Assembly (NCBI GenBank): GCA_016192455.1
Contig: JACPUC010000001.1
Coordinates: 124,001 to 188,000 of the forward strand
Source of the DNA: Candidatus Tectimicrobiota bacterium
GTDB lineage: Bacteria; JACPUC01
DNA length: 64,000 bases
Direction: 5' to 3'
The position numbers and the translations under genes are program-made. How positions within the stretch are numbered: the stretch's first letter is position 1; every line of letters begins with the position of its first letter. Positions 18,002 through 20,800 of the stretch are shown piece by piece. The notes under the pieces were generated by a model. It was given only the letters and a program-made list of their open reading frames with translations. It did no database searches and was not told the DNA's origin.

Positions 18002-19249
18002 ATGGTTCCCGACACCCGCCACGATCTGCCCGAGCAGACCGAGGAGAGCCTTGATCAGCCGCTGCTGGAGGGGATTCGTATCCTCGATCTGTCGCGCATG
18101 CTGGCCGGACCCTACGGTTCTCTTCTCCTCGCCGACATGGGGGCCGAGGTCCTGAAGATCGAAGACCCCGGCGTCGGCGACAAGACCCGCACGGGATTCC
18201 CCCTCCTCTATGAAGGGGAGAGCATCTACTTCCTCAGCTTGAACCGGAACAAAAAGAGCCTGACGCTGAACATGAAAGATGCGCGCGGCCGCGACCTCTT
18301 CGCCCAGCTCGTGAAGCAGGCCGATGTCGTCTACGACAACATGCGTCCCGATGCCTTGAAACGCCTGGGGGCGGACTACGAGACGCTGCGTCAGCTCAAC
18401 CCGCGCATCATCTCCTGCTCGGTGACCGGCTTCGGCCACACCGGCCCCTACCGCGACCATCCGGCTTTCGATCTCATCGTCCAGGGGATGGGCGGCGCCA
18501 TGAGTTATACCGGCCCCATCGACGGCGAGCCGGTGAAGATGGGCCTGCCGATGGGCGACCTGGCGGCCGGCATGTTCGGCGCCCTGGCGGTGTGCGCCGC
18601 GCTCTTCCGCCGCGAACGCAGCGGCTACGGGCAGCGCATCGACATCTCGATGCTCGACGGCCAGATGTCGCTGCACACCTACATCGGCGGAAGCTGGTTG
18701 CTGGCGCAGGACATCGCCCGCCCCTTCGGCTCGGCGCACCAGTACATGGTGCCCTACCAGGCGTTCAAGACCGCCGACAGCTACATCGTCGTCGTCACCT
18801 CCGTCGAGGAGCGTTTCTGGGCCAACTTCTGCCGGGCCGTGGGCCTCGAGGAGCTGGCGGAGGAGCCGCGCTTCCTCACCAACCAGCAGCGCGGCGCGCA
18901 CCGGGATGAGCTGATCCCCCTGCTCGAAGAGCGGTTCCTCGCGAAGACCTCCGAGGAGTGGCTGGCGCGCCTGAACGAGGCGGACGTGCCGTGCGGCCCC
19001 GTGAACACCATCGACCGCGCCTTCCAGGAGCCGCAGGTGCTGGCGCGCAACATGGTGGTGGACGTGCCGCACCCGCGCTCCGGCACCGTGATGAAGGTGA
19101 TCGGCAACCCGATCAAGGTATCGGCCCAGAAGACGGAGCGCTTCGTCTGCGCGCCCTCTCTCGGCGAGCATACCGAATCGATCCTCACCTCGCTCCTCGG
19201 CTATTCCGCCGAGCAGGTCGCCGCCTTGCGGCGGGAAGGGGTCGTCTGA
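18002..19249 (+). CDS. Family III CoA-transferase (CaiB/BaiF)
   Basis: ILDLSRMLAGP, LADMGAEVLKIE, LNRNKKS, GFGHTGPY, catalytic D in PMGDL. Confidence 0.95.
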   Translation: MVPDTRHDLPEQTEESLDQPLLEGIRILDLSRMLAGPYGSLLLADMGAEVLKIEDPGVGDKTRTGFPLLYEGESIYFLSLNRNKKSLTLNMKDARGRDLFAQLVKQADVVYDNMRPDALKRLGADYETLRQLNPRIISCSVTGFGHTGPYRDHPAFDLIVQGMGGAMSYTGPIDGEPVKMGLPMGDLAAGMFGALAVCAALFRRERSGYGQRIDISMLDGQMSLHTYIGGSWLLAQDIARPFGSAHQYMVPYQAFKTADSYIVVVTSVEERFWANFCRAVGLEELAEEPRFLTNQQRGAHRDELIPLLEERFLAKTSEEWLARLNEADVPCGPVNTIDRAFQEPQVLARNMVVDVPHPRSGTVMKVIGNPIKVSAQKTERFVCAPSLGEHTESILTSLLGYSAEQVAALRREGVV

Positions 19250-19371
19250 GGCGGCGGCGGGTGGGCGGACGGGGAGGCTTGCCCGGTTACGCGAGCGGGG
19301 TGCTACGTGTCGGCGCCCTAGCGCAGAGGTGGTGAGCGAGCCCCCATGTCCATGCGCAAGAGAGGGAACCT

Positions 19372-19617
19372 GTGAAGACCTACACGTTCAAAGTCGTCCT
19401 CGAATCTGACGGGGAGGGCTGGCATGTACGGTGCCCGGCTCTCGACCACTACGGTGCCGCCACCTGGGGCGAGACGAAAGAACAGGCGCTCGATCACATC
19501 CAGGAAGTCATTGAACTGATCCTGGAGGAACTTCGCGAAGAGGGACTGCCGATTCCAGATGGCCAGGCCGAGGAGGTGGCGGTTTCTGAAGAGCCGTCGG
19601 TGACCGTCACCCTATGA
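19372..19617 (+). CDS. hicB: HicB family antitoxin (short form, no DNA-binding domain)
   Basis: CPAL...ATWGETKEQALDHIQEVIELILEEL...GLPIP; ATGA overlap with hicA. Confidence 0.9.
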   Translation: MKTYTFKVVLESDGEGWHVRCPALDHYGAATWGETKEQALDHIQEVIELILEELREEGLPIPDGQAEEVAVSEEPSVTVTL

Positions 19618-19923
19618 CTGACTACGCGCGCCTTCGCACCCTTACGGCGCGGCAGCTCATCGGGGCGCTCACGCAAGACGGCTTTCGGTTTGTGCGGCAG
19701 AGGGGCAGCCACCACCGCTATCGGCACCCGGATGGGAGAAGGGTCACCGTCCCCTTCACGCGCAGGGGAGAAACGCGTGTGGCGTCTCTCCCTCGTTACC
19801 GCTCCCACCGTCCCCTTCACGCGCAGGGGAGAAACTTTCGCCCCGAAAACACTCCGCCACATCATCGAAAGCCAGGCACGCTGGACGGAAGAAGACCTCG
19901 CGCGCCTTGGCCTTGCTCCATAG
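19614..19923 (+). pseudogene. hicA: HicA toxin gene frameshifted by a 61-bp insertion
   Basis: GFRFVRQRGSHHRYRHPDGRRVTVP lies in one frame and ETFAPKTLRHIIESQARWT in another; removing one repeat plus spacer restores an 82-aa HicA. Confidence 0.9.
19745..19835 (+). repeat. 30-bp direct repeat x2 around a 31-bp unique spacer (CRISPR-like unit)
   Basis: CACCGTCCCCTTCACGCGCAGGGGAGAAAC at 19745-19774 and 19806-19835, identical copies. Confidence 0.95.
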
Positions 19924-19959
19924 CGAAGCAGGTACGCAAAGCGGTCAAAAGGGCAAAAC

Positions 19960-20583
19960 ATGGCCGAGATGCCGAACATATCACCTGATGAATTCAAGCG
20001 AGGGTACCTGGCTTTCCAGAAACACGTACACAGACCCTCCTGGTATAAGACGGCGACGGTCCTGGTTCGGCACTCTTGGGGCGATCCGAGAGAGATGGCA
20101 GATGGAATAGCCGTACTGCTTCTGACCTGGAACAAACGCTTTTATAAGTACGGGTCCTTCGACTTTGACCGATTAGAGGAGGCCCTGCGAAGGAACATGG
20201 GCGTGATCGAGGGGCTCCGGGCGCGCCACATTCAATCGCTTGTGGTGGCTGATGAACCCATCATCAGGCAGCTTTTCCTGGATTTCCTCGAGGCGCTGCG
20301 AATCAAGGAAGGGAAGAAGACGAAGGATCGCCCGATGGTCGCCGTGGCGAAGGCTCTACACCTTCTTGCACCGGACTTTCTCCCCATATGGGATCGCAAG
20401 ATTGCCAGAGCCTACACTGGCTCCTACTACTCCAATCCCGACCACAAGTACGTGGCCTTCGCCTACAAGATGCAGCACCTCGCGCGACAACTCCACGAGC
20501 ATGTCCCGCCGAACGGCGGGCGGACGTTCTTGAAACTGATCGACGAGTACAATTACTCCAGGTACACGAAGCGTTGGATTTAA
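19960..20583 (+). CDS. Hypothetical protein, possible HhH-type DNA glycosylase-like fold
   Basis: Lower-GC ORF with LLTWN and AVAKALHLLAPDFLPIWD motifs; fold assignment is inference. Confidence 0.6.
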   Translation: MAEMPNISPDEFKRGYLAFQKHVHRPSWYKTATVLVRHSWGDPREMADGIAVLLLTWNKRFYKYGSFDFDRLEEALRRNMGVIEGLRARHIQSLVVADEPIIRQLFLDFLEALRIKEGKKTKDRPMVAVAKALHLLAPDFLPIWDRKIARAYTGSYYSNPDHKYVAFAYKMQHLARQLHEHVPPNGGRTFLKLIDEYNYSRYTKRWI

Positions 20584-20800
20584 CTGATGCAGAGGACTTC
20601 GCAGGAACCGAAGAGCTGGCTTTCGGCGGCACTGGCTTTGCTGGTCCACGCCGCGCGATTCAATCCTGGCGACACCGTTGCGCCGCCGATGGCCATTCAC
20701 CTGGATCCTTGATGCTCAGCAGGTTCAGGAATTCTTCAAGGGACGGGACGATTCCTGAATGCATGAAGCGCCCAGGATAACCGTTTCACGAGGCCGCCGC

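Follow-up and report, generated by a model that had tools for sequence, protein, structure and literature searches.

In an uncultured bacterium from groundwater, the hicA toxin gene is interrupted by a 61-bp unit, made up of a duplicated stretch of coding sequence and a short unique insert. This unit is probably the mark of misdirected CRISPR spacer integration, of which natural examples are rare. On balance, we favour off-target integration of the Cas1-Cas2 type, with type I-E-like geometry, as the process that made the unit. This reading is supported by the repeat-insert-repeat structure at period 61, its recurrence in the genome, the existence of an empty site and the repeat-like character of the targets; against it stand the lack of type I-E cas genes in the assembly, the lack of a protospacer, the palindromic cargo of several units and the variable splits among units of period 52–68.

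A 61-bp unit interrupts hicA

The window analyzed here, a stretch of 64,000 nucleotides corresponding to C23:124001-188000, belongs to a metagenome bin of 31 contigs (4.46 Mb, 67% G+C, 88% complete). Within it, the sequence CACCGTCCCCTTCACGCGCAGGGGAGAAAC occurs on the forward strand at positions 19745–19774 and again at 19806–19835. The two copies are 100% identical, with a start-to-start distance of 61, and enclose a unique 31-bp insert at 19775–19805 (68% G+C; 33 bp if the duplication is taken as 28 bp). Since the bases just outside both copies differ, the exact identity extends over 30 bp and no further. Sequence comparison therefore confirmed the 30-bp exact duplication, 31-bp insert and period of 61 reported in the preliminary description of this locus, and the 91-nt stretch as a whole matches nothing but itself across the 4.46-Mb genome. 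The duplicated target was also correctly described as palindromic, as it can form a hairpin (TCCCCT..AGGGGA) with a best stem of 6 bp. The parsing of the unit into 28 + 33 bp, proposed at the same time, agrees with the period of 61, whereas the exact repeat of 30 bp requires that two positions match by chance; the unit is probably a 28-bp duplication with a 33-bp insert in which 2 bp match in this way.

The gene upstream, an intact hicB-like antitoxin gene of 81 aa (19372..19617, forward strand), overlaps the start of hicA by 4 nt and was identified as an open reading frame (ORF) with a weak match to the Pfam family HicB_lk_antitox (E 9.2e-5, 23 bits, under the 27-bit cut-off). The 5′ part of hicA (19614..19774, forward strand) consists of codons 1–53 plus 2 nt and ends with the first target copy, while the 3′ part (19807..19923, forward strand) retains 38 codons and the stop in the original frame, now out of register with the 5′ part. 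The insertion after codon 53 plus 2 nt shifts the frame, and the present ORF (19614..19988, forward strand) encodes 124 aa, namely 54 HicA residues and then a tail read in the wrong frame. When one 61-nt unit was removed in silico, ORF prediction returned an 82-aa HicA, bearing out the earlier claim that deletion of the unit restores the toxin. Residues 1–54 match the Pfam family HicA_toxin PF07927 (E 9.8e-14, profile positions 2–39 of 58) and, together with the length of 82 aa without the unit, this match assigns the presently frameshifted gene to the HicA family on the basis of its sequence. The closest HicA homologues are all 81–84 aa long and are uninterrupted across the conserved motif TVPFTRxGxTF, the stretch that is duplicated here.

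As a result of the insertion, the toxin lacks its C-terminal third, with hicB left intact, and the truncated HicA has most likely lost its fold. Selection may plausibly have favoured the knock-out; alternatively, it was simply tolerated. That the unit is instead a tolerated functional element, acting through ribosomes that bypass the 61 nt by taking off from and landing on identical sequences, or through hairpins regulating hicBA, is scarcely credible. The identical 30-nt flanks would indeed provide matching codons on both sides, but the frame after the first target copy contains no stop and continues for 70 codons, the gene of a relative (see below) has no such gap, and the other units found in the genome are intergenic or have no annotated neighbor.

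An empty site in a relative

Groundwater metagenome runs contain the hicBA stretch, and the insertion was checked at the level of their assembled contigs. Contigs from another assembler in runs X1 and X3, both from one study, span positions 18800–20800 with 0 differences; as they come from a single study, possibly that of the source samples, they only rule out a peculiarity of a single assembly. Run X5, which belongs to a different study, contains one 2698-nt contig of a relative (depth 11.7) that covers 18800–19744 and 19806–20552 and joins 19744 to 19806, so that exactly 61 nt (19745–19805) are absent and 30 letters fit either side of the gap. This contig diverges from the window at 73/945 letters in its first part and at 111/747 letters in its second part. 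The relative’s HicA (P0001) has 82 aa, 78 of which are identical to the restored HicA, the 5′ part of hicA being 93% identical to it and the 3′ part 100% identical to its residues 45–82; judged from their equal length, the 2698-nt contig of P0001 and the X5 contig with the empty site appear to be the same. In run X4, the contig pieces listed end at 19774 and resume at 19806, none of them lying over the insert and none showing a 61-nt skip. Relative to the empty site, the hicA unit is a precise insertion with target duplication, and the filled and empty states are documented as a pair for this unit alone.

The preliminary description had named an assembly artefact and comparison with uninterrupted hicA orthologs among the checks on its reading. 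An assembly or binning artefact, with the 61-bp unit absent from the cells, could be suspected in a genome that is a 31-contig metagenome bin and was compared by contigs, and is nonetheless highly improbable: the unit is reproduced by another assembler, the relative has a clean empty site and an intact ortholog that skips exactly 61 nt, and collapse or expansion of repeats does not produce a unique 31-nt insert.

The wider locus was also compared. In L025, a metagenome contig of a more distant relative with a CoA-transferase 79% identical to that of the hicBA locus, hicB, hicA and a 207-aa ORF are missing and an acyl-CoA dehydrogenase gene lies within ~80 bp 3′ of the CoA-transferase gene. Their absence from L025 indicates that hicB, hicA and the 207-aa ORF form an accessory insertion, and comparison of L025, the X5 relative and this genome gives three states of the locus, i.e. 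no module, intact module, and module plus unit. Among species representatives, the CoA-transferase beside hicBA had no relative above 46% identity. The 207-aa ORF (19960–20583), which forms a small block with hicB and hicA (window 19300–20700), showed no Pfam or NCBIfam match.

Sister units in the genome

All periods between 40 and 110 were scanned across the genome for direct repeats in two copies, with at least 21/24 matches between the copies. Seven solo repeat-insert-repeat units were found at period 61, against 0–3 at each other period that is not a multiple of three; the 47 other such periods gave 14 units in total, 8 of which lie within true CRISPR arrays (periods 74, 76 and 77). With looser thresholds there were 10 units at period 61 and 0–4 at each of the other non-multiple-of-three periods between 50 and 73. 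The hicA unit (C23:143745; 30 + 31, exact) is one of a series of recurrent events, with at least six more period-61 scars in the genome. Two of these, at C20:292348 and C24:55094, are exact and split as 28 + 33, and four, at C1:276758, C2:247407, C4:27754 and C20:57142, have 2–4 mismatches between copies. Further units were present at periods 52, 58, 60, 66 (two) and 68. The two exact units of period 66, at C7:11408 and C31:93725, are split differently (38 + 28 and 32 + 34, respectively), which is unexpected from one fixed-ruler integrase.

The context of the units was read from the Pfam families of flanking ORFs, in a genome whose 67% G+C makes it rich in spurious long frames. Besides hicA, 9 of the 12 units examined are intergenic between Pfam-annotated genes and 3 have no annotated neighbor, hicA being the one clear case of an interrupted gene. 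This intergenic bias fits the view that insertions into genes were eliminated unless, as with the toxin gene, the gene was dispensable. The unit at C1:276758 sits between jag and mnmE, which we take to be origin-proximal genes.

Targets compared with the type I-E repeat

The type I-E array of Escherichia coli K-12, located by cas2-cas1-casE, has a 29-nt repeat and a spacing of 61 in 10 of its 12 intervals and of 62 in the other 2. The period-61 targets are GC-rich hairpins, and a perfect stem of at least 5 bp was found in 5/7 of them as compared to 20% of random 28-mers from this genome. The word CGCGC was present in 6/7 targets (17% background) and CCCGCG in 4/7 (4% background), many words having been tried and the figures being uncorrected. 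Scores of at least 9 against the E. coli repeat were reached by 4/7 targets versus 7.8% of random 30-mers. The likeness to the E. coli repeat end that the preliminary description noted for the hicA target is not significant when this target is taken alone, its score of 9 being reached by those 7.8% of random 30-mers. The C24 target, on the other hand, scored 13, a value reached by 0.07% of random sequences. Its hairpin is 2 bp shorter than that of E. coli and the duplication is nonetheless 28 bp, which fits a fixed cut distance and favours the division of the hicA unit into 28 + 33. Read on the reverse strand, each of the three exact inserts starts with G, as a PAM-derived base would have it; with the hicA boundary ambiguous and a chance level of a few percent, no weight was given to this feature.

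Cas genes and CRISPR arrays

Type I-E Cas1, Cas2, Cse1 and Cas7e were not found in the 88%-complete assembly, as judged from the lack of matches to TIGR03638, PF09344, PF09481 and PF09707, two of these searches being silent in the E. coli control as well. The sole Cas1, encoded on C9 together with a Cas2, scores as a generic Cas1 and, at levels under the respective cut-offs, as type I-D, I-G or I-C, and gives 27 bits on the I-E model, the cut-off of which is 215.6 bits. This locus (L001, C9:120778-124611) comprises Cas1-Cas2 and an array of 7 repeats of 37 bp with periods of 74–81 and adjoins a truncated DDE transposase; effector genes were absent from the 3.8 kb read. A second CRISPR array, with 36–37-bp repeats and periods of 69–74, is located at C20:317065-317284 and runs off the contig end. 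Neither array of the assembly fits a 28 + 33 geometry.

The preliminary description held that a lineage without type I-E Cas1-Cas2 would speak against off-target adaptation, and this is how matters stand in the 88%-complete assembly, where the only Cas1-Cas2 is the one associated with 37-bp repeats. CRISPR-cas loci are often left unbinned in metagenomes and 12% of the marker genes are missing here, so that the non-detection of I-E cas genes concerns the assembly and not the organism. The phylum is represented by this genome only in the taxonomic comparison set.

Source of the inserts

The 31-nt insert of hicA had no exact match in viral, genome or metagenome contig collections, gave only chance-level blastn matches against phages and plasmids (E 0.1 or worse), and found a longest match of 14 nt in its own assembly. 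The PAM-flanked source anticipated for it was thus missing from the own genome and from all the phage, plasmid, viral, genome and metagenome collections searched and, with no protospacer found there, the PAM cannot be read. Likewise, the 33-nt inserts of C20:292348 and C24:55094 had no viral match and no significant plasmid match. On the spacer-integration reading, the hicA insert would be foreign in origin.

These searches also bear on a replication or repair error in which the nascent strand leaves after the palindrome, copies 31–33 nt elsewhere and returns 28–30 nt upstream. The targets form hairpins that are able to stall polymerases, but the insert has no template in its vicinity or elsewhere in the assembly, where nothing longer than those 14 nt matches, and slippage would not yield the identical sum of 61 nt at seven or more loci. 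We regard a template switch as very unlikely.

A model for the hicA unit and its relation to known systems

Under off-target spacer integration, a Cas1-Cas2 complex of I-E-like geometry would act on the repeat-like, GC-rich palindrome within hicA, making staggered cuts ~28 bp apart, and a ~33-bp prespacer would be joined into the cut target. Gap repair would then duplicate 28 bp, giving a repeat-spacer-repeat structure and a gain of 61 bp that looks like 30 + 31 owing to the two chance matches. The enzyme itself may be encoded in the 12% of the genome missing from the assembly or on a mobile element, or may since have been lost. Of the natural off-target adaptation event put forward in the preliminary description, the precise insertion of 61 bp, the I-E unit length and the hairpin-forming target are borne out by the present analysis, which adds the sister units; the I-E cas genes and the protospacer were not found.

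In a 2018 study (Nat Microbiol 3:310), Nivala, Shipman and Church reportedly showed that off-target integration by type I-E Cas1-Cas2 produces “neo-CRISPR” units. The hicA unit is like these in being a repeat-spacer-repeat structure outside an array with a duplicated target and the I-E unit length of 61; in addition, the targets resemble repeats and several loci are affected in one genome. Unlike the neo-CRISPR work, which relied on over-production in E. coli, the events described here are natural, fixed in the population and have broken one gene; they also occur in an assembly without matching cas genes, and many of the inserts carry parS or REP palindromes. Off-target spacer integration is described in E. 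coli over-producing Cas1-Cas2 by sources that present natural cases as circumstantial (10.1101/148544; PMC6698737), and work on off-target integration is also cited in PMC7054753 and PMC11788318. Cas1-Cas2 of Pyrococcus furiosus is further described as integrating off-target in vitro at repeat-like sites in plasmid DNA (PMC6698737). The hicA unit shares with this case the integration into non-CRISPR DNA with sequence features of the repeat, but the P. furiosus system is of another CRISPR type with other dimensions and the observation concerns plasmid DNA in vitro only.

With type I-E arrays, the units have in common a palindromic GC-rich repeat of 28/29 bp, a spacer of 32/33 bp and a period of 61, from which they differ in having two copies only, no leader and no adjacent cas genes, the “repeat” being local sequence that is different at every locus. 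A canonical CRISPR array was rejected on the grounds that there are two copies only and that every one of the 7 loci has a repeat of its own. As with miniature inverted-repeat transposable elements (MITEs) or insertion sequences (IS), a short insertion lies between direct repeats of the target, but the duplications here are 25–38 bp long, there are no common insert ends and the inserts are mostly unrelated. DDE transposons produce far shorter target duplications, of 2–15 bp. A MITE or transposon was rejected given the lack of shared ends or terminal inverted repeats and the varying position of parS within inserts.

So far, evidence for off-target integration in nature, and for a role in shaping genomes, has been thin. 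The empty site, the broken gene and at least six sister scars of equal dimensions make this a well-documented natural case. It suggests that the adaptation machinery is able to knock out genes, here disarming a toxin-antitoxin module, and that the scars may outlive the cas genes or arise from cas genes on mobile DNA.

parS and REP-like palindromes in the inserts

The palindrome ATGTTCCACGTGGAACAT, an odd cargo for spacers, is found in six units, comprising 3 of the 7 units of period 61, two of period 66 and one of period 68. The palindromes are located at C2:247445, C7:11447, C20:57184, C24:55139, C31:51605 and C31:93759, within inserts of 25–36 bp flanked by duplications of 22–38 bp. The 16-bp core of ATGTTCCACGTGGAACAT is identical to parS2/parS3 of Pseudomonas aeruginosa as given in Table 1 of PMC4368675, where the chromosomal parS sites of this species are reported to be bound by ParB. 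Unlike P. aeruginosa parS, which is ordinary chromosomal sequence, 6 of the 15 copies here lie in inserts with target duplications. The count of 15, on 11 contigs, refers to the 14-nt core; the 18-mer is present in 12 copies, four times the number in any of 400 other genomes, 20 of which contain it in 1–3 copies each. None of the 22 parS sites in these 20 genomes is flanked by a repeat that reaches 10 nt.

The offset of parS varies among the inserts, the palindrome being at the edge or no more than 2 nt from it in 4/6 cases and truncated there in C24, and the sequences flanking it match no other genomic parS locus past 20–25 nt. The unmatched flanks indicate that the inserts are pieces of differing parS-bearing DNA from outside the assembly and not copies of a single element. 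REP-like hairpins were found in the inserts of C1:215310, C4:27754, C6:57170 and C14:72033, and a hairpin with the AATCTGCG motif is common to the inserts of C1:276758 and C1:40066. No palindrome is contained in the inserts of hicA and C20:292348.

The main rival to the Cas1-Cas2 reading is an undescribed process, not involving Cas proteins, that adds a nearly fixed length of ~61 nt at GC-rich hairpins by combining an extended target duplication with a small piece of DNA that is often palindromic, the hicA unit being one of its products. Such a process would account for the failure to find matching cas genes in the assembly, for the fact that units contain 6 of the 15 copies of parS as well as some REP-like hairpins when none of the 22 parS sites in the other 20 genomes is flanked in this way, and for the varying division between duplication and insert in units of period 52–68. 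On the other side, we know of no enzyme besides Cas1-Cas2 that makes 28-bp staggered duplications with a ~33-bp insert of fixed length, the exact period-61 units (28 + 33, 28 + 33 and 30 + 31) have the numbers of type I-E, the inserts lack common ends or terminal inverted repeats, and palindromes are absent from two of the exact inserts, including that of hicA. We therefore consider this explanation rather unlikely, although it deserves to be taken seriously.

Returning to spacer integration, a more speculative version, which we would hold to be doubtful, is that an activity of the spacer-integrase type has a preference for DNA that is palindromic, bound by protein or able to self-anneal, such as parS sites and REP hairpins, and pastes it at repeat-like hairpins, thereby creating new perfect ParB-binding sites. 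Were this so, integration of the CRISPR-adaptation type would be a source both of centromere-site dispersal and of gene knock-outs, in a genome where matching cas genes are no longer seen and with hicA as by-catch; should ParB bind to the parS-bearing units, chromosome segregation signals would be remodelled as well. A substrate pool that is possibly biased towards palindromes bears on how prespacers form. As guesses at the origin of such a bias, palindromic single strands might self-anneal to the splayed duplex bound by Cas1-Cas2, hairpins might resist exonucleases, or ParB-bound DNA might be a hot spot. The titles and opening parts of abstracts in the literature searched report neither parS nor other palindromes as preferred spacer cargo.

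The period-61 inserts at C1:276784-276818 and C1:40098-40126 share AATCTGCG(T), a motif also occurring near C1:320252 and C1:326053. A REP-like family, AGGGGCGGTTCGCGAACCGCCCCT, has 91 exact copies genome-wide and 102 copies of its 22-nt core (e.g. at C1:215342). Ordinary REP mobility was rejected as an explanation for the units because only 1 of these 102 sites is flanked by a duplication. A second palindrome family, centered on GGGGCAAGCCCC, comprises 62 sites, and few copies of either family are duplication-flanked.
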